A stretch of DNA of 21,710 bases from positions 1 through 21,710 of the forward strand of contig CBDDTI010000380.1 in the NCBI GenBank assembly GCA_965233585.1, in the 5' to 3' direction. A model generated the notes under the pieces. That model saw only the letters and a program-made list of their open reading frames with translations, did not search any database and had not been told where the DNA came from. The stretch comes from a bacterium. GTDB taxonomy: Bacteria > SAR324 > NAC60-12. The translations under genes and the position numbers were made by a program. Shown in pieces: positions 2,503-19,640 of this stretch (the stretch's first letter is position 1; every line of letters starts with the position of its first letter).

Positions 2503-3969
2503 TTTTGAAGGAGCTCAGCCACTTGATTTTGGATTTATTTTGGCCACGAACAAAATCACCTTTAAAATTGAAGGGAACTTGAAAATAAAAGTCTACCATT
2601 AGAGAAAAAACTCCAAAGAGATAATAACAAACCATAAAGGAACGAGGATGGTTAAGGTTGGAGAAGATTAACGCGGATTTCAAACGACGAACTAGAAAAA
2701 TTTAGGCTAAACTTTTCAAGATGCGCAAAACAGTGACTCAGCTCTTTTAAGTTGTCAATTAATCGTTTAATAAGTATTACGATGCACTTTTGGCCAAGAT
2801 GTAAGAAGCTCTTACCTTCAGTGACCACAAACGTAAATAGGTACACTGAATCAACCAAATTAAATCGCTACAGTAGAAAATTTGATTTACACATTTTATT
2901 TTATACCGCACCCAACGTTCTAAAATGTGACTCAAGCAAATTGAAGGAAAATACTATTTTTGAGCCATGTGGTCGATGTAAAGAGAGTTTTGTAGCAGTA
3001 AGACGGATCATCGTCATATGATAGCATTTTATTCGCGGGTCTGTATGAGTAATAATGTAAATGTATCTAAAATTACCTCTTTCTGATGCTATTAAGAAAC
3101 TAACAGCGAAAGGAAAGATATCTGTAGAAACGGCCAATGTTAATGTATGTTGGAATTTGTGGAGCTGTCCATAATGTGATGATGTTTAGAACAGATTAAA
3201 AAATTATTTTTGAGCCATGTGGTCGATGTAAAGAGAGTTTAGATGTTTAGAACAGATTGAAACAGGCTTTCCACTTTTTTGCGAGGAGGAGAAAATAATT
3301 TATATAGCGTCCCATTGCCGAAGCAAAATATTACTTAACAAGAGAGAAACGTGATTGCAAGCTAAACTATAAGTATTAGCTAGTATTATATTCATTTGGC
3401 TGTATCATTACATGAAGCTTGCTTCTTTTGGCTCCGGCAATTTTGAAAGAGCCCTGTTGGTGAATAATCTTTACACATGTATTAATTTTCAAATTGTAAA
3501 CCTTATTAATCCTTTGATAATTCACAGGATTGATAAATTTTGTAGCTCTTTTGAAGATGATTGCCAGTCCATACTGCGCAGTCTCAGCACTCTAATGTTT
3601 GTGAGCCTCACACGATGAAATGCGAATTGATGTTATTCGTCACGAACCGCTTACCTTATTTTTGAGGCGCATTTTAAATTCTTTTTCCAGCAGTTTCCTT
3701 GAGTTTTACAGCTATGAAGTTTTTTGATGAAGTGATGTCAGAAAGAATTAAGCATGAAGCTTCGCATCGTAATGGCGGTTTACATGAAACTTTGAATTTA
3801 CTTTATGTAAGTAGATGCGAAATGCTACATTTTGTGACATCTTACACGAAACAAAAACAAAAATCGTAAACAAACTCTCGAGAGTGCGCAGAACGGACTG
3901 GAAATCATCTTTAAAGGTAACGAACGGAAGTTTTGTGTTTAACATTAGTGGGTGATAATCTTCTGGCTG

Positions 3970-6900
3970 TTTTTTTTTTTTTTTTTTTTTGTTTTTGTTT
4001 TTTTGTTTTTTTTTATTCTCTTACATGAATTACAATTTACACTAAAACGGCAAAAACATAACAACACATTTACATATCTACACGTTACAATCTACATGCT
4101 GTGAGAAAAACTAAGAATTACGTAGAACTAAGTATTACAATACGCTACTTACATTGATGTCCAGTGATTACATACGCTTCCTACGTCGAATTGTATTTAC
4201 CTATTGTTATTTGACACTGTGTTCTATTTGTTGTTTTATATACTTATTACGGCGTACCTTATATACACATTACGTTACCTAAGGACTTAAGGACGAGATA
4301 CCGGCATTTTGTACTTATGGGAAAGAGAGAGAAAAAAAAAAAAAAAAAAAACGCAGCAAAATAATGGGCACGCTTTAATTGGTGAGAAGGAATTTCCACT
4401 TCTGTTGAAATCCCCTCTCATCATTACACGTGGCTGCAATGTATTTTTCTATTTCGATTTTATCTTGCACCAATGAGATGAAGTCGCTGAAAGCGAATGT
4501 AGTTTTATTTAGCGCGTTGATATAAAGAAAATATTTGCCTAGCATTATGAGGTTGTTGAGGGCCAAGCGGTGCGTACAGGGACGAGTAACGCCAAATAAT
4601 ATCTCTGGTTCGGAGAGAAGTAAATTCGCATCACTTACGGCAGAATACCAGCTTTTGAACTTATTCCAAAAACAAGATGCTTGTGGGCAGCTAATAAACA
4701 AATGATGTATATTTTGACTATCAGAGGGACAGTAAGGACAGGACGGGGAGGCAACCTTTTTCATTTTGTATAAAATACTGTTCGTGGTTAAAATATTGTG
4801 TATAATCTTGTGCTGAAATATTGCTAACTTAACTTCTTTTGTGGCTTTGAACGGTAGAAGGTAGATTTTATTTAAATTCTCTTTTGTAATACCGTACGAT
4901 AGGAGTTTTTTTTCTGAGGTGGGAGGAGGAAGATTTTGAAGAGTTAACAGTTTGCCATATAACATCTTGCACGTTATAGTACAGGTTTGCAGCGGGGGTG
5001 AAATAGGGACACCAGAATTAGTGTAAAGGAGCTTCTTCCAACTTTTAGGGATCGCGGATATGAGAGCATGGTATTGTAAAAAGTTGCAAGTTAACGTATA
5101 TTTATTGCGCAAAGAAAGGAAAGGCAGGAAGCAATTTTCATTCTCGTCAAACAGGTCTGAAATTTGCTTTATTCCTGCTCGGTGCCAAAGAGGCAGATAT
5201 ACCATTTTTTTGTCAATCGTAATGAATTTATTGTTCCATATTGTCTGAGACAATATCTCGGTCTTGCTGCGAGGTGTCATAGACACGATTTCTTGCCAAT
5301 GATGAATAATTTGTTTGTAAAATTCCGGAAGATGGCCATTAAGATCAAGAAGGTTACAATCGTAATTGCATTGAAAGAGGTCACGATTTCCTCAAGAGAG
5401 GAACGATTTTGGAATATACTTGGTCACGATTTCTCAAGAGAGGAACGATTTTGGAATATACTTCCACGGGGCGTCTGAGGCGGAGCACAGCCGTTTTACC
5501 CAAGTTAATTTCAAAGCCTTATCGAAAAGAACAAAATCTTTCATACCAAGACCGCCATCTACTTTTTTCTTAATAAGGGTTGTCCTTTTTATCTTGGCGG
5601 GTTTTTGCTTCCAGATAAAGTCAAACGCTATTTTATTAACCTCTGTTGCAAAGTTTTGGGGGGTCTCCATAACGCTGGAGATGAATACAAGTTTGGAGAG
5701 GGCTAATGTTTTAACGATATTTATTCTACCGTATATAGATAGGTCTCTTTGGGACCAAACACTTAAGGTTTTCTTTAGGGAACCTAATTTGTCAAAGAAG
5801 TTTTTCTTATAAGACAATTCAGTATTGTAAGTAAAATGTACCCCGAGCGCATAAACAGGATCATCGCTAATTTGGAGGTTGCAAACTGCGTCGCTCCTGT
5901 GGCGCATGGAGCCAAGCCATAGCATTTCTGATTTTGCCTGATTTATTTTTAGGCCAGAGCACTTTTCATACAATGAGAGTAACTCAAATAAATTAGAAAC
6001 TGACTCGACATCGGTGAGAATGGCAGTTGTGTCGTCAGCATGCTGCGTTAGCTTGACTTCCTCATTCCCTTGGATATATAAACCCTTGATGTCGTTTGAC
6101 CGTCTTATACTTTGGGCAAGAAGTTCCATAGCAATAACAAAGAGTGTGCCTGAAAGGGGACAACCCTGACGGACACCGCGTTCCAAGTAGAAGAGTTTGG
6201 AGGCGACGCCATTGTTAACGATACAACTACAGATATCTTTGTAGAACACACTGATCCATTGCCGGAGATTTGGTCCAAAGTTGAAAGATTCAAGACATTT
6301 TTGGATGAAGTCCCATTCAATTGAGTCAAAAGCTTTTTCGAAATCTAAGAAAACAGCTATGCCTGGAATATTTTTAATCTTAGTGAAGTCCATTGTGTCT
6401 GCTATTAGTCTGATACTTTCTCCAATGAATCTACCCTTTACATAGCCGGATTGACAAGGATGTATTATGCTTGGCAGGATCTTTTCCAAGCGAAGAGCAA
6501 TAGTCTTGGTCGCAATTTTGTAGTCCACATTAAGTAGCGATATCGGCCTCCAATTTGTTAGATATTCCCCGTTCTTATTCTTTTTTGGGGTTAAAGAGAT
6601 AATACCTTGCCGTTGAGAGATAGAAAGTGACCCGTGTTGTAGACCATAATTAAAACTGTCTACCATGTATTTGTTTACAGCGTTCCAAAAATAGCGATAG
6701 AATTCTGAAGTGAGGCCATCTGTACCTGGTGTTCTATTGCTTTCCATCGTCATAAGCGCTCGTTCACATTCATCAACTGACATAACACCTTCGCAAGTTT
6801 TTGCAGTCTCTTCTGATAACGCGTTTTCCGCATTAAAGAATTCGATAAACTCTGAGCCGTTCGGATTCGTGTTTCTTGATGTATAGATTTGTTTAAAAAA

Positions 6901-7474
6901 GCGCTCTTCCTCTTCAAGAATCTCTTTCGGGTCAGTTAATTTTGCGTCATCATCGATTTTTAAGGATGTTACATGTTTTTTCCTTTGGTTTGCTTTTTCT
7001 AAATTGTAGAAATACTTACTATTTTTCTCGCCAAATTCATACCATCGCGCCCTACTGCGTATAATGGTGCCACGCGTTTTGACGCTTGCTATTTTTGAAA
7101 GCTTGGTTTTTATTCTTTCTAATTCACTCCTTAGGGAATCGCTGTACTCTGTCTGGAGCTTACACTGCAGTTTGATCATCTCTGACAAAAGGGCATACTC
7201 TTCGTCACGCTTGCTTTTTGCTTTTTTTTTCGAAAATTTTATTGTAAATGCTCTGATTTCCATTTTAATCATTTCCCAGAACAATCCTTTGTCTTCGGTT
7301 TCTTGATGCTTTTTGGCGAACTCTGGAATTAAAAAATTCAATAATTCCACATATTTCGTGTCGGACAGCAACGAGTTATTAAATTTCCAGAATCCGGGCC
7401 CACGAGGGGGTTCCTGTTCGGAGAAAGATATAGATAGGACGACAGCAGAATGGTCAGAATAAATATTTGGGATT
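3970..7474 (-). mobile_element. 5'-truncated non-LTR retrotransposon, L1/Tx1 clade
   Basis: Poly(A) tail (plus-strand T-run ~3970-4014) overlapping AATAAA, ~360-nt 3' UTR, and ORF2 with the end of the APE endonuclease (SDH), RT and a CCHC knuckle. Candidate TSD GCTGTTTTT at 3966-3974 and 9408-9416. Confidence 0.95.
4375..7474 (-). pseudogene. LINE ORF2 (endonuclease remnant, reverse transcriptase, Zn knuckle), interrupted by two in-frame TGA
   Basis: Track ORFs 5434..7491 and 4375..5286 share one frame. Motifs: YSDHSAV, GPGFWKFNNSLL, TPGTDGL, NWRPISLLNVDYKI, LDFEKAFD, GVRQGCPLS, QHADD, CPYC..HLFISC. Stops at 5434-5436 and 5392-5394 lie in a 42/43-bp tandem duplication (5379-5463). Confidence 0.93.
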
Positions 7475-7766
7475 AAAGTAATTTGTCCCATAGTAGCAAT
7501 TGAGTGATAACGGTCATTAATGCAAGTGCGGCCGTAACACTACTTGAACAGAGACCTGAAAAAATTTTCAGGCTCTGAGCGGGATTCGAACCCACGACCT
7601 CTGCGATGCCAGTGCAGTGCTCTCCCAGAGCCTGAAAATTTTTTCAGGTCTCTGTTCAAGTAGTGTTACGGCCGCACTTGCATTAATGACCGTTATCACT
7701 CAATTGCTACTATGGGACAAATTACTTTCATCTTTACTGTACTTGGGCCAAGTCTAAACGTCCCCA

Positions 7767-7772
7767 TATAAA
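7767..7772 (+). promoter_or_regulatory. TATA-like box 31-36 nt upstream of each tRNA-like head
   Basis: TATAAA at 7767-7772, repeated in every unit at a spacing compatible with TFIIIB/TBP binding. Function is inferred. Confidence 0.4.
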
Positions 7773-7802
7773 GGGCTAACTCACATACGACCGCTCTCAT
7801 GT

Positions 7803-7876
7803 GGCTTTGATAGCTCAGTTGGGAGAGCACTGCACTGGCATCGCAGAGGTCGTGGGTTCGAATCCCGCTCAGAGCC
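7803..7876 (+). tRNA. tRNA-like sequence with anticodon GGC (probably tRNA-derived ncRNA or pseudo-tRNA); further full copies at 8047, 8291, 8548, 8792, 9036
   Basis: Cloverleaf: GGCTTTGA/TCAGAGCC acceptor (8 bp), GCTC/GAGC D-stem, CTGCA/CGCAG anticodon stem (A-C mismatch), loop CTGGCAT, GTGGG/CCCGC T-stem with TTCGAAT. A box TAGCTCAGTTGG, B box GGTTCGAATCC. Confidence 0.75.
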
Positions 7877-7882
7877 TGAAAA

Positions 7883-7888
7883 TTTTTT
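7883..7888 (+). terminator. RNA polymerase III terminator (T6) after each full tRNA-like head
   Basis: TTTTTT starting 7 nt after the acceptor stem, within the small palindrome CCTGAAAATTTTTTCAGG. Confidence 0.6.
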
Positions 7889-10179
7889 CAGGTCTCTGTT
7901 CAAGTAGTGTTACGGCCGCACTTGCATTAATGACCGTTATCACTCAATTGCTACTATGGGACAAATTACTTTCATCTTTACTGTACTTGGGCCAAGTCTA
8001 AACGTCCCCATATAAAGGGCTAACTCACATACGACCGCTCTCATGTGGCTTTGATAGCTCAGTTGGGAGAGCACTGCACTGGCATCGCAGAGGTCGTGGG
8101 TTCGAATCCCGCTCAGAGCCTGAAAATTTTTTCAGGTCTCTGTTCAAGTAGTGTTACGGCCGCACTTGCATTAATGACCGTTATCACTCAATTGCTACTA
8201 TGGGACAAATTACTTTCATCTTTACTGTACTTGGGCCAAGTCTAAACGTCCCCATATAAAGGGCTAACTCACATACGACCGCTCTCATGTGGCTTTGATA
8301 GCTCAGTTGGGAGAGCACTGCACTGGCATCGCAGAGGTCGTGGGTTCGAATCCCGCTCAGAGCCTGAAAATTTTTTCAGGACAAATTACTTTCATCTTGT
8401 TCAAGTAGTGTTACGGCCGCACTTGCATTAATGACCGTTATCACTCAATTGCTACTATGGGACAAATTACTTTCATCTTTACTGTACTTGGGCCAAGTCT
8501 AAACGTCCCCATATAAAGGGCTAACTCACATACGACCGCTCTCATGTGGCTTTGATAGCTCAGTTGGGAGAGCACTGCACTGGCATCGCAGAGGTCGTGG
8601 GTTCGAATCCCGCTCAGAGCCTGAAAATTTTTTCAGGTCTCTGTTCAAGTAGTGTTACGGCCGCACTTGCATTAATGACCGTTATCACTCAATTGCTACT
8701 ATGGGACAAATTACTTTCATCTTTACTGTACTTGGGCCAAGTCTAAACGTCCCCATATAAAGGGCTAACTCACATACGACCGCTCTCATGTGGCTTTGAT
8801 AGCTCAGTTGGGAGAGCACTGCACTGGCATCGCAGAGGTCGTGGGTTCGAATCCCGCTCAGAGCCTGAAAATTTTTTCAGGTCTCTGTTCAAGTAGTGTT
8901 ACGGCCGCACTTGCATTAATGACCGTTATCACTCAATTGCTACTATGGGACAAATTACTTTCATCTTTACTGTACTTGGGCCAAGTCTAAACGTCCCCAT
9001 ATAAAGGGCTAACTCACATACGACCGCTCTCATGTGGCTTTGATAGCTCAGTTGGGAGAGCACTGCACTGGCATCGCAGAGGTCGTGGGTTCGAATCCCG
9101 CTCAGAGCCTGAAAATTTTTTCAGGTCTCTGTTCAAGTAGTGTTACGGCCGCACTTGCATTAATGACCGTTATCACTCAATTGCTACTATGGGACAAATT
9201 ACTTTCATCTTTACTGTACTTGGGCCAAGTCTAAACGTCCCCATATAAAGGGCTAACTCACATACGACCGCTCTCATGTGGCTTTGATAGCTCAGTTGGG
9301 AGAGCACTGCACTGGCATCGCAGAGGTCGTGGGTTCGAATCCCGACAAATTACTTTCATCTTTACTGTACTTCAAGTCCATTAATGACCGTTATTTGGGA
9401 TTACTTTGCTGTTTTTGTCGCTAGCGTCTTTACGAGTCTGTTAGATGCAGTTAACAAGTTACTTCACGGATTTGAATGGCACCTCAACACGTCAGGAGAG
9501 TAGACCGTCAAAGACTTGTCTTTTGTGTCAAATCACAAAGGAGAATAATTCTTGTTCGAGAGAGTGCAGAGGACTTATTATCGCAATGTAATATAGATAA
9601 ACAGTAAAAAGCTCGAGAAATTGGAATTAAAATGTCTACATTGCCTGTAAAGCTTTTGTAATCATATTGAAAGCGAAGATTAAAGCCAACAGTTTTCTAC
9701 GTTTTGCACGATCTGTTCTGTGTTTGACTGGTCAAAAAGTACAGACGCCCTGCGGTTGGGCCGGAGCATTTGAAAATGCGGTGGTTAGAAAACACATGAT
9801 CCACCCCTTCCATTTGGCACAATAGGTTTAAAATCACATGACCCACTACCCCCTCCCCCTTCACACCCCCGCCAATAAGACATTTGATTGCATAATCCTA
9901 CAAAATCACATTTTGTATATGAAATTATGGTAACATTTACGTTTAAAAAGTGATGTTTTCCTTTACCCTTACAACTTTATGTCACGTCCGTAAACGCCCT
10001 AAACCTTTCGCACTAGTTCTCCAGCCTTGCTACGGGTGGATCAGTGATCCATTTAGAAAAAGGCTGTAGTGAGTTCTGGGAGTCACATGGCCAGTAATCT
10101 ACGAGTCCCAGATCTATAAACATCATAGGAAAAATAGCATGTAGGCACAAGTTGGCACCATTATGCCAACAGAGCCAGA

Positions 10180-13449: not shown

Positions 13450-13863
13450 TTGTTCATCGTCACTGTCAGCATAATCATCATCTTTATATCAGACGTTATT
13501 TCCAACGTATCTTACTATCGTCATCACAATCCTCACTGCCATCGTCACTCTCATAGTCGCCAGCGTTGTCATCATCCTTATTTGCATCATTATCCTAATC
13601 GCCATCGTCATTATACATGTCAGGTTTGTAATCCTCATCATCACCGCTATCATCACCGCCATCATCACTGAAAAGATCATCCTCGCGGTCACAACAGCAT
13701 AAACATCACGGCAGTCGCCGCCGTCGTCGTCGTCGTCGCCCTCTCCCTCGCCCCCGTTACCGTCATAGTCAACGTCATCGTCGTCGTCAGCGTCACCATC
13801 ACTGTCACAATCACCGTCAGCGTCACTATCAGCGTCACCGTCAGCGTCACTGTCAACGTCATG
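13450..13863. repeat. Low-complexity degenerate trinucleotide tract (CAT/CGT/CAC)n
   Basis: Runs of catcat, cgtcgtcgt and cgtcac; explains the spurious His-rich and Met-rich ORFs. Confidence 0.9.
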
Positions 13864-19382: not shown

Positions 19383-19455
19383 AATTGCAGACTGAACTAG
19401 AGACACAGGTTTACAGTTTTTTAAAGAATTGTGATGGCGGTGGCGGTGGTTTAAA

Positions 19456-19640
19456 ACAATATAATTGAGGAGGAGGAGGAGAGAGAACAATAGAATTGAG
19501 GAGGAGGAGGAGGAGGAGGGAAAACAATAGAATTGAGGAGGAGGAGGAGAGAGAACAATAGAATTGAGGAGGAGGAGGAGGAGGAGGAGAGAAAACAGAA
19601 TTGAGGAGGAGGAGGGAAAACAATAGAATTGTGGTGATTG
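19456..19640. repeat. Compound minisatellite AACAATAGAATT(GAG)n
   Basis: Five units with variable GAG runs plus a GTG variant, lying between divergent ORFs. Confidence 0.92.

Follow-up and report, generated by a model that had tools for sequence, protein, structure and literature searches.

Penelope-like elements (PLEs) leave insertions with a recognizable layout. The available text of two reports (PMC8557442, PMC3846280) describes partial tandems, an adjoining inverted and 5′-truncated copy, a tail of 30–40 bp at one end, and target-site duplications (TSDs) of 8–10 bp, and it describes PLEs as able to mobilise unrelated sequence in trans. Animal non-LTR retrozymes are a second relevant system. 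The accessible parts of PMC7229834 and bioRxiv 10.64898/2026.07.22.740005 describe them as tandem repeats of 170–400 nt that carry type I hammerhead ribozymes, are expressed as circRNAs, occur in cnidarians, and show TSDs of more than 4 bp when TSDs are present. They are thought there to be mobilised by PLEs or LINEs via circular or multimeric RNA.

We analysed a 21,710-nt stretch of DNA (hereafter, the window), itself chosen for its odd appearance, in which an array of 244-bp tRNA-like units lies within a LINE. The insertion architecture of the array family matches that of PLEs and animal retrozymes. The literature searched on tRNA-like tandems, rolling-circle reverse transcription of SINEs or tRNAs, non-autonomous Penelope-like elements, and coral SINE arrays did not describe such elements. 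The coral CMITE arrays were considered and set aside as unrelated: in the text available of PMC2872659, these are piggyBac TTAA MITEs. We think it likely that the locus records two nested, independent retro-insertions, and that the array belongs to a ribozyme-free, tRNA-like family of non-autonomous retroelements.

The contig is host (coral-like) DNA that was binned into a bacterial genome. The assembly that we searched measures 12 Mb, and roughly 9 Mb of it is animal-host DNA, a point to bear in mind for users of this bacterial genome. Another contig of the same bin, C745, is a bacterial/eukaryote-like chimera.

The outer element of the locus is an L1/Tx1-like non-LTR retrotransposon on the minus strand, and it shares with that group the RVT_1 and zf-RVT domains, a poly(A) tail, 5′ truncation, and a 9-bp TSD. 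Its left boundary is the 9-mer GCTGTTTTT (3966–3974, plus strand), whose T-run merges into the poly(A) tail (3970–4014, minus strand; read on the plus strand as poly(T) with three G interruptions). The 3′ UTR follows (4015–4374, minus strand), then the C-terminal part of ORF2 (4375–5391, minus strand), which is open over 338 codons and matches zf-RVT at about 4666–4851 (1.8e-07). The remainder of ORF2 (5437–7475, minus strand) begins with the endonuclease's final residues (IPNIYSDH), continues through the reverse transcriptase (RT), and is open over 680 codons, with RVT_1 at about 5836–6585 (ORF 5434–7539, minus strand; 2e-35, 122.8 bits). Between the two pieces, inside a 42-bp tandem duplication (5379–5463), lies a private 52-nt patch with in-frame stops (5384–5435, minus strand), at which the contigs of all four public runs compared show 13 other letters. 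We rejected a frameshift in the LINE because both ORF pieces share one reading frame and the stops are confined to this patch. Neither the whole LINE nor its 3′ UTR has a second DNA copy in the 12-Mb assembly.

The original prediction ended the LINE at position 7475, which does not hold: the LINE resumes at 9392, beyond the array, and ends at 9407. The minus-strand frame runs on from the right-hand 12-mer as ...K-V-I-P-N-I-Y-S-D-H, and the final four LINE bases (CTTT, 9404–9407, minus strand) keep the reading frame and, together with TA, encode the K-V that precedes IPNIY. Full-length relatives (74–59% identity) read [K/Q/E]-[V/I]-x-[P/S]-[N/C]-[I/L]-x-SDH at the same place, so that an alignment extended past IPNIYSDH carries the LINE through K-V. 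Because an in-frame stop stands 14 codons upstream of these residues, and because endonuclease homology was found neither to the right of the array nor elsewhere in the window apart from IPNIYSDH, the 5′ end of the LINE lies at 9407, directly against the second copy of GCTGTTTTT (9408–9416, plus strand). Full-length relatives carry Exo_endo_phos (PF03372), RVT_1, and zf-RVT; in contrast to full-length L1/Tx1-like elements, the window LINE has neither endonuclease nor ORF1 and has in-frame stops in its private patch. The missing APE-type endonuclease fits 5′ truncation rather than a different family.

The window contains exactly two copies of GCTGTTTTT. The expectation from shuffles is 0.51 copies over the two strands together; at least two copies, at any position, were present in 8 of 100 shuffles. 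The left copy adjoins the poly(T) and the right copy adjoins the final LINE-derived bases, and from the shuffle rate we estimate a chance of ∼2e-4 for a copy within ±10 bp of the LINE end. Thus the 9-bp repeat is real, exceeds chance, and can credibly be taken, as originally predicted, for the TSD of a LINE that inserted on the minus strand with poly(A) priming. The LINE would have entered by target-primed reverse transcription at the T-run, would have been 5′-truncated in the final endonuclease residues, and would have left the 9-bp duplication around a body that now spans 3975–7475 plus 9392–9407. Its 3′ junction lies in unrelated DNA. A Tx1-like LINE that targets the array was therefore rejected, since the 3′ end lies outside the array and it is the array that interrupts the LINE.

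A 12-bp repeat, TATTTGGGATTA, brackets the array. It occurs exactly twice in the window, at 7464–7475 in LINE sequence and at 9392–9403 in its original LINE context (both plus strand), and 0 of 100 shuffles contained any copy; the bracket described in the original prediction is therefore real. Since the LINE resumes at 9392 and ends at 9407, the array is inside the LINE, 16 bp from its 5′ end, and it also lies within the LINE's 9-bp TSD (3966–3974 versus 9408–9416), as had been proposed.

The direct arm of the array (7626–9344, plus strand) consists of 7.0 tandem copies with a period of 244 bp (98% matches), and in each unit a T-run hairpin comes after a tRNA-like module. The units are 100% identical save one patched unit (pairwise mean 98.2%). 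ARAGORN called six tRNAs in the array, and Rfam gave eight tRNA matches, six of them at 61 bits. In the patched unit, a 19-nt piece of the unit, GACAAATTACTTTCATCTT, stands in place of GTCTCT (8380–8398, plus strand), which reads as a template-jump scar with microhomologies of 2–3 nt. The direct arm ends in a patchwork (9344–9394, plus strand) of 29 nt of unit, CAAGTCC, and then ATTAATGACCGTTAT; it stops at unit position ∼227, the commonest terminus of the family, and shares 3 nt (TAT) with the 12-bp duplication. The original prediction had the 244-bp unit copied reiteratively, and the units do look so made, being identical save one and accompanied by microhomology jump scars.

To the left of the direct arm we found an inverted arm that the original prediction missed. 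Positions 7471–7627 are 157 nt of a partial unit in reverse orientation (99% complementary), which makes the array two-armed. This arm overlaps the LINE by 1–5 nt of imperfect microhomology (7471–7475); beyond the left copy of TATTTGGGATTA it occupies 7476–7627 (minus strand), head-to-head with the direct arm. Its strand layout was taken from its own alignment and from the Rfam matches. Its outer end falls at unit position ∼15–19 (...GGGACAAATTACTTT), the tail-bearing terminus.

We wondered whether the array could be cargo of the LINE, as originally predicted. At L1 5′ junctions, inversions arise by twin priming, and template switching by the RT produces U6/L1-type chimeras. LINE-1 chimeras with other RNAs are also described in the text available of 10.1101/2025.02.02.635956. 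Here, tRNA-like repeats, as RNA or as DNA, would have become the new template of the LINE RT or of the repair of its 5′ junction and would have been copied over and over, so that one event delivered LINE and array together. Consistent with this, the array sits within the 9-bp duplication only 16 bp from the LINE 5′ end, a position unlikely for a random later insertion; on the plus strand, antisense LINE sequence is followed by antisense unit sequence (7476–7627), like a continuing first-strand cDNA; microhomology jump scars are present; and both elements look young, the LINE ORF being open over 680 + 338 codons bar one patch and the units identical bar one. The locus shares with L1 5′ junction products the priming of cDNA by both target strands (antisense, then sense), joining by microhomology, and RT template jumps. 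In those products, however, one TSD encloses both LINE and foreign part, the latter being situated past the LINE 5′ end; the window array, by contrast, is flanked by a separate TSD that consists of LINE sequence, and 16 bp of LINE follow on its far side. For a cargo origin, the first-strand cDNA must have reached the CTTT at 9407, a second strand of 16 nt must have been synthesised, and both 3′ ends must then have changed template to element RNA, precisely at the two canonical termini of the family. The same facts follow in one step from a staggered cut of 12 bp.

The relatives of the array bear on this choice. In the assembly we found 31 clusters belonging to three tRNA-like families. Among these, 24 were mixed-strand, and all 24 were divergent (minus, then plus) and none convergent. 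A script found exact flanking duplications of 11–16 bp at 12 of the 31 clusters, and this automatic procedure found no duplication of at least 11 bp at 17 of them; inspection by eye added C182 (14 bp), the window (12 bp), and the single copy on C745 (11 bp). As a control, 17 of 3000 mock placements gave a duplication of at least 11 bp. Thus the layout of two arms, termini ∼35 nt apart, and an exact duplication of 11–16 bp recurs at 14 other tRNA-like insertions of the assembly. The termini of the Thr-like family are ∼48 nt apart, and its units are 98.6% identical within arrays and 91% identical between arrays.

The same polarity holds in coral metagenomes, from which we retrieved 80 of the 87 loci holding one 24-mer of the unit: 38 loci have the plus arm alone, 30 the minus arm alone, 12 minus then plus, and none plus then minus. 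All 12 two-armed copies therefore share one divergent polarity. The loci provide 74 distinct outer ends, with 38 at unit position 224–235, 22 at 15–28, 8 at 238–244, and 6 elsewhere. The outer ends of the window array (∼227 and ∼15–19) are one of each of the two main termini. Older metagenome copies retain a duplication of at least 10 bp in 6 of 28 complete insertions. A second unit 24-mer had 0 matches in public genome contigs.

Against this background, the 12-bp bracket is as long as a TSD of the array family and lies where one would be expected, and both outer ends of the array fall at canonical termini of the family. If arrays were made at LINE junctions, they would be expected to be enriched there, as the original prediction had it. 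A LINE 5′ end adjoins the array in 1 of 15 assembly insertions, that of the window alone, and at none of the 14 other sites. LINE or PLE coding matches lie within 3 kb of 3 of the 15 assembly insertions, and the retrieved flanks of the 80 metagenome loci show no such matches. One sister array, C187, sits in the middle of a LINE ORF1 and interrupts it, with a 13-bp duplication readable as LQKK on both sides. The window array thus looks like a separate mobile element that landed in the LINE, not LINE cargo. By a rough estimate, a landing 16 bp from the LINE 5′ end has a probability of ∼2e-4 per insertion, or ∼0.02 over the roughly 95 insertions examined, and some coupling to the LINE junction is possible. 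Overall, coupling of the array to LINE integration is disfavoured, and we regard an origin of the array during that integration as improbable.

An allele with the LINE and no array would read ...AATAAATATTTGGGATTACTTTGCTGTTTTT..., that is, LINE through ...TATTTGGGATTACTTT into GCTGTTTTT. When both flanks were compared with the 12-Mb assembly by BLAST, neither an empty nor a LINE-only allele appeared; the matches were solely unrelated repeat copies, a MITE-like repeat on the left and short matches on the right. An exact 24-mer of the LINE 5′ end had 0 matches in public genome contigs and 0 in metagenome contigs, and neither the joint 3974→9417 nor the joint 7475→9404 appeared among the 15 listed of 70 joints in contigs of four public runs. 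Those contigs gave no usable cover of the array's interior, and none of the public runs listed with matching sequence was recorded as RNA. The order of the two events is read from the geometry alone, since the LINE was found in no array-free form, whether as an allele or as a paralogue.

We also considered a repeat mis-join in a long-read metagenome assembly as the source of the inverted arm, the copy number, or the LINE/array join. Host DNA in a bacterial bin, and the chimeric state of C745, would encourage such a reading, and seven identical units are beyond checking with the short public-run contigs. However, mis-joins would not give exact duplications, canonical termini, and constant polarity at dozens of loci, and the 12 two-armed metagenome loci come from independent short-read contigs. 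Moreover, two public-run contigs agree with the LINE up to exactly 7475 and then depart from the window for a further 381 and 332 letters, as a real junction predicts. An assembly artefact is thus very improbable.

Our preferred reading of the array, as an independent retro-insertion, has the following form. A non-autonomous tRNA-like retroelement with a 244-nt unit would have entered the LINE 16 bp from its 5′ end, with nicks staggered by 12 bp that became the duplication TATTTGGGATTA. Each nicked strand would have primed cDNA on sense-strand element RNA, one starting near unit position 227 and the other ∼35 nt further, at unit position 15–19. The two cDNAs would have met head-to-head at 7626/7627, one of them after copying a multimeric or circular template over about seven unit lengths and jumping at microhomologies a few times. 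While the nesting geometry, the architecture common to the family, the strand polarity, and the canonical termini are observed, we infer that the template was RNA and that the array was born as an array rather than grown later.

Growth in place would instead begin with the independent insertion of a single-unit or short two-armed copy with its 12-bp duplication, from which unequal crossing-over or replication slippage would afterwards have built up the seven units. Copies of that size exist, since the C745 copy is 221 bp and many metagenome loci are shorter than one unit. Recent amplification at the DNA level also yields identical units, and T-run lengths differ among the units of the single C182 array. 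Yet multi-unit arrays with a single flanking duplication occur at many loci and in three families, and the odd unit at 8380–8398 and the patchwork at 9344–9394 resemble template jumps of a polymerase, not products of recombination. In addition, PLE insertions (in the text available of PMC8557442) and non-LTR retrozyme insertions (in that of PMC7229834) are described as multi-copy and head-to-tail at insertion. We therefore judge later growth to be unlikely, though less so than LINE cargo. Identical units can also be obtained by later unequal crossing-over.

The most likely candidate enzyme is a Penelope-like RT with a GIY-YIG endonuclease, which we favour because the layout matches published PLE insertions. 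According to the parts of those reports available (Penelope/Poseidon, Naiad, Chlamys), PLEs share with the array family head-to-tail tandems, a head-to-head inverted and 5′-truncated copy, a tail of ∼30–40 bp at one end, short TSDs of variable length, and frequent 5′ truncation. The inverted copy beside the tandem is seen in the window (7471–7627, minus strand, against 7626–9344, plus strand) and in the divergent arms of all 24 mixed-strand assembly clusters and all 12 two-armed metagenome copies; the one-end tail corresponds to the ∼35 nt that separate the family's termini. In contrast to PLEs, the array family has no ORF, its unit is only 244 nt around a tRNA-like module, and no hammerhead was found; its TSDs measure 11–16 bp against 8–10 bp in the rotifer PLE examples of the text available. 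ORFs of 775–1006 aa that combine an RT with a C-terminal GIY-YIG domain are present on host contigs: there were 44 GIY-YIG matches on small contigs, and three of the four ORFs tested had RVT_1 followed by GIY-YIG, the fourth GIY-YIG only. The non-tRNA parts of the units showed no significant similarity to the 1.5 kb downstream of the 44 matches in the ∼9 Mb of host DNA (best E 0.03), and none to the 3′ UTR of the window LINE.

With retrozymes, the family shares small non-coding tandem units, occurrence in cnidarians, and TSDs of more than 4 bp (in the window, 244 bp × 7 and a 12-bp TSD; in its sisters, 11–16 bp). It differs in that the place of the retrozyme ribozyme is taken by a tRNA-like module and a T-run hairpin. 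Rfam scans for self-cleaving ribozymes, including the hammerhead, returned tRNA alone (Ala-like at E≤10; Thr-like and Arg-like at E≤5). With tRNA-derived SINEs, the array family shares a tRNA-like module (Rfam tRNA, 61 bits), a non-coding and dispersed nature, 5′-truncated copies with defined common 3′ termini, and TSDs of variable length in the LINE range. Unlike in those SINEs, the tRNA-like part does not form the 5′ end but begins ∼87 nt inside the unit, with the T-run hairpin (a run of T6–T13) directly after it. The family also lacks a poly(A) or microsatellite tail, and neither of its termini, ...GACCGT(TAT) and ...ACTTT(CATC), carries an A-rich tail; its copies are commonly multi-unit and two-armed.

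We tentatively propose that stony-coral-like genomes may contain several tRNA-like, ribozyme-free counterparts of retrozymes with units of 244–300 nt, for which a Penelope-like RT and endonuclease might copy multimeric or circular RNA and integrate ready-made tandem arrays with a head-to-head arm. If so, tRNA-like satellites would be seeded by retrotransposition and not by slow DNA-level amplification, and the conserved tRNA-like module and T-run hairpin would replace the hammerhead as the signal for processing or recognition. A circular or multimeric template without a ribozyme would raise the question of what processes that RNA. Three tRNA-like families with TSD-flanked, two-armed, often multi-unit arrays that have fixed termini link the literatures on tRNA-derived SINEs, Penelope-like integration, and retrozymes, and such families offer a testable route for the birth and dispersal of small tandem satellites. 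At this locus, what appears to be a satellite-carrying LINE is more plausibly one mobile element nested in another in the ordinary way, a caution against over-reading repeats at junctions.

The unit itself contains a predicted cloverleaf that scores 61 bits and that ARAGORN reads as Ala-GGC. To our knowledge, GGC is not a usual eukaryotic Ala anticodon, and no G3:U70 pair is visible in the alignment. The copy of the tRNA-like module on C81 has a C at position 33.

We examined the array block and its borders in the window. The tandem array was recovered at 7626-9344 (period 244, 7.0 copies) together with its 12-mer bracket, TATTTGGGATTA, at 7464-7475 and 9392-9403 (2 in the window versus 0 expected). 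The units score as tRNA (Rfam, 61 bits; ARAGORN, Ala-GGC) and are 100% identical save one patched unit, with a pairwise mean of 98.2%. A 157-nt inverted partial unit, missed by the original prediction, lies at 7471-7627 and is 99% complementary to the units after it. Thus, the array block has two arms, the antisense one short and the sense one long, which meet head-to-head at 7626/7627.

The surrounding LINE was analyzed in the same way. On the minus strand, the DNA from the poly(T) (3970-4014, read on the + strand) to 7475 is an ORF2 remnant with profile matches to RVT_1 and zf-RVT, and we judge the 9-mer GCTGTTTTT, present at 3966-3974 and 9408-9416 (2 in the window versus 0.51 expected), to be a credible TSD for this LINE. 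The ORF pieces 7539..5434 and 5391..4375 share one frame; the stops are held by a 52-nt patch (5384-5435) inside a 42-bp tandem duplication (5379-5463), and contigs of all four public runs compared (4/4) have 13 other letters in place of the patch. The duplication is private to the window's LINE copy (net +39 nt, in frame, two stop codons). The proposal that the LINE ends at 7475 was not borne out: its frame resumes beyond the array, in the right 12-mer plus CTTT (9404-9407), which translate on the minus strand as ...K-V-I-P-N-I-Y-S-D-H. Full-length LINE relatives (74-59% identity) read, for example, D-V-K-V-L-P-N-I-F-SDH and E-C-K-I-L-S-N-I-H-SDH at this place. Upstream of K-V, LINE similarity stops, an in-frame stop lies 14 codons up, and no endonuclease homology was found anywhere right of the array in the window. 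Judged from this continuation and from what lies beyond it, the true 5' end of the LINE is at 9407, directly against the right GCTGTTTTT, and on the same sequence reading the array interrupts the LINE 16 bp short of this end.

The array belongs to a mobile family whose copies share a constant insertion layout. The window's assembly holds 31 clusters from three tRNA-like families: Thr-GGT-like (period about 250), Arg-TCT-like (about 298), and Ala-GGC-like (244). Both strands are present in 24 of the 31, and all 24 are divergent (antisense first, then sense; 0 convergent); the other 7 have copies on one strand only. In a scripted search, 12 of the 31 clusters proved to be bounded by exact direct repeats of 11-16 bp; inspection by eye added duplications for contig C182 (14 bp), the window (12 bp), and contig C745, where a lone 221-bp copy is flanked by 11 bp. 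Under mock placement, 17 of 3000 trials reached 11 bp. The outer ends are also fixed. In the Thr-like family one is ...TCTTCACTT and the other, ...AACTTCACAT, lies about 48 nt beyond it; units of this family are 98.6% identical within arrays and differ by ~9% between arrays. For the Ala-like family we sampled 80 of the 87 metagenome loci holding a unit 24-mer: 38 were '+' only, 30 '-' only, 12 '-+', and 0 '+-'. Among 74 distinct outer ends, 38 fell at unit position 224-235 (...ATTAATGACCGT(TAT)), 22 at 15-28 (...GGGACAAATTACTTT(CATC)), 8 at 238-244, and 6 elsewhere. The window array ends at about 227 (right) and about 15-19 (left), carrying one of each canonical terminus of its family, and its 12-bp bracket is within the family's TSD range.

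A loose motif (CTTCAC, TTTCAC, TTATCAC, TTTCATC; drawn from contigs C22, C74, C189, C348, C557, C707, C101, and C569 and the window) lies near the fixed termini in all three families and could be a priming or recognition site. In all three, too, the 3' side of the acceptor stem continues into a stable hairpin enclosing a T-run (window 7866-7905 and, in excerpted loci, L032:1458-1500 and L033:668-712; -11.5 to -18.8 kcal/mol, z -4.4 to -5.6). In the predicted structure this hairpin competes with the tRNA acceptor stem; it may be a functional module that the families share.

How did the array come to lie in the LINE? In our best reading, which we consider probable, it is an independent insertion nested in the LINE: if LINE DNA already in place was cut with a 12-bp stagger, the observed product would follow in one step, as in the other 14 insertions with exact flanking duplications in the assembly. 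The original prediction was right about both repeats, the array, the LINE, and a credible LINE TSD, but its view of the array as cargo, delivered with the LINE in a single event, is not supported. Such an event would require the first-strand cDNA to reach the CTTT at 9407, the second strand to be made for 16 nucleotides, both 3' ends to depart from the LINE, and each to resume on the element RNA exactly at one of the family's two normal termini. In favor of coupling, an array within 16 bp of a recognizable LINE 5' junction should be rare (roughly 2e-4 per insertion, ~0.02 over ~95 insertions), a figure not to be taken at face value because the window was selected for its oddity. The window's assembly contained no second haplotype of the locus, the LINE end did not recur in the genome and metagenome contig collections scanned, and, among the joints listed, no public-run contig bridged or skipped the array.

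As for a link of arrays to LINE 5' ends, only the window's insertion, among the 15 in the assembly, abuts one. Three of the 15 (the window, C182 at 0.9 kb, and C187) have similarity to LINE or Penelope-like element (PLE) coding sequence within 3 kb. On C187, an Arg-TCT-like two-armed array (6903-7617, 13-bp TSD) sits in mid LINE ORF1 and the duplication reads LQKK on both sides; this is unambiguously a later insertion into a LINE body. The break falls in the coiled-coil region of this ORF1, which is L1-like, ~1 kb upstream of the same LINE's ORF2. Flanks of up to 2.5 kb at the metagenome loci gave LINE or PLE coding similarity in 0 of 80; this search used ten L1/Tx1-like ORF2s and eight PLE ORFs as queries, so that other clades could escape it.

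The antisense-then-sense polarity is constant across two-armed copies. Synthesis primed at each target 3'-OH therefore always yields the antisense strand of the element, which points to a single-stranded sense template, i.e., RNA; a double-stranded DNA template would yield all four orientations. The spread in duplication length (11-16 bp) points to staggered nicks followed by target-primed reverse transcription from both, and arms that exceed one unit would need a multimeric or circular template. Template jumps by the polymerase would then account for the patch (8380-8398) and the patchwork (9344-9394), which are joined at 2-3-nt microhomologies. A possible alternative is twin priming carried out by a LINE enzyme of the APE type.

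In two published accounts (PMC8557442; PMC3846280), PLE insertions comprise tandems, partial or multi-copy, beside an inverted copy that is truncated at its 5' end; ~30-40 bp of extra sequence is carried by one end only, the TSDs are short and vary in length, and foreign sequence can be mobilized in trans. The whole layout published there matches that of the tRNA-like arrays, and the host DNA of the assembly carries ORFs with RT then GIY-YIG. By analogy, the array would work like a PLE-type non-autonomous element. Animal non-LTR retrozymes, as described in two further sources (PMC7229834; bioRxiv 10.64898/2026.07.22.740005), are 170-400-nt tandem repeats, cnidarians included, with TSDs >4 bp, thought to be mobilized by PLEs or LINEs via circular RNA. 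The tRNA-like units differ from these in that no hammerhead or other ribozyme was detectable in the units of any of the three families. Nor was similarity to a PLE 3' region found for the units in the window's assembly; thus, we do not file the array as a retrozyme or a proven PLE dependant. The literature searched, with Repbase-type repeat databases and supplementary files outside its scope, held no description of the family, which is modestly novel relative to known kinds.

The window is one of 747 contigs in a 12-Mb assembly filed as a single prokaryotic genome. ORFs of at least 150 aa cover 79-87% of the bases in five large contigs, 25% in the window, and 0% in contig C81. The small contigs carry many LINE fragments, 44 GIY-YIG hits, and 217 tRNA or tRNA-like calls spread over 97 contigs. 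Public runs containing parts of the window include some labelled coral or coral reef metagenome, and the nearest named proteins to its LINE come from a stony coral. Taken together, these results show that the window is animal-host DNA binned with a bacterium, the host most likely being a coral. On the best reading, the finding itself amounts to an ordinary case of one mobile element nested in another, within host DNA that contaminates the bin.

Most of the ~740 small contigs (~9 Mb) look like coral-like animal-host DNA, carrying LINEs, PLEs, and tRNA-like arrays at low ORF density; a contamination of 2.09%, as stated for the genome, thus falls far short of the foreign DNA in the bin. C745, a coding-dense 620-kb bacterial contig, is almost devoid of long ORFs over its last ~36 kb (~584000-620666), where the 221-bp Ala-like copy with its 11-bp duplication lies (L035, 587400-588500); bacterial and host DNA have probably been joined here into a chimera. 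Contig C4 (13 kb) has fourteen tRNA-Lys(CTT) calls, irregularly spaced and in mixed orientation, unlike the regular arrays; these may be a true cluster of tRNA genes or belong to a different element family. In the window, a MITE-like repeat of about 365 bp (3551-3914; inverted ends ~35 bp) lies 55 bp left of the LINE and has copies of 69-85% identity on at least 7 other contigs; at position 3914, public-run contigs show a large peak in depth and numerous loose ends. Other tandem repeats occupy 2254-2499 (120-bp unit, two copies), 13636-13862 (CGTCAT-type, 6/12/24 bp), and 19453-19631 (GAG-rich, 31-68 bp).
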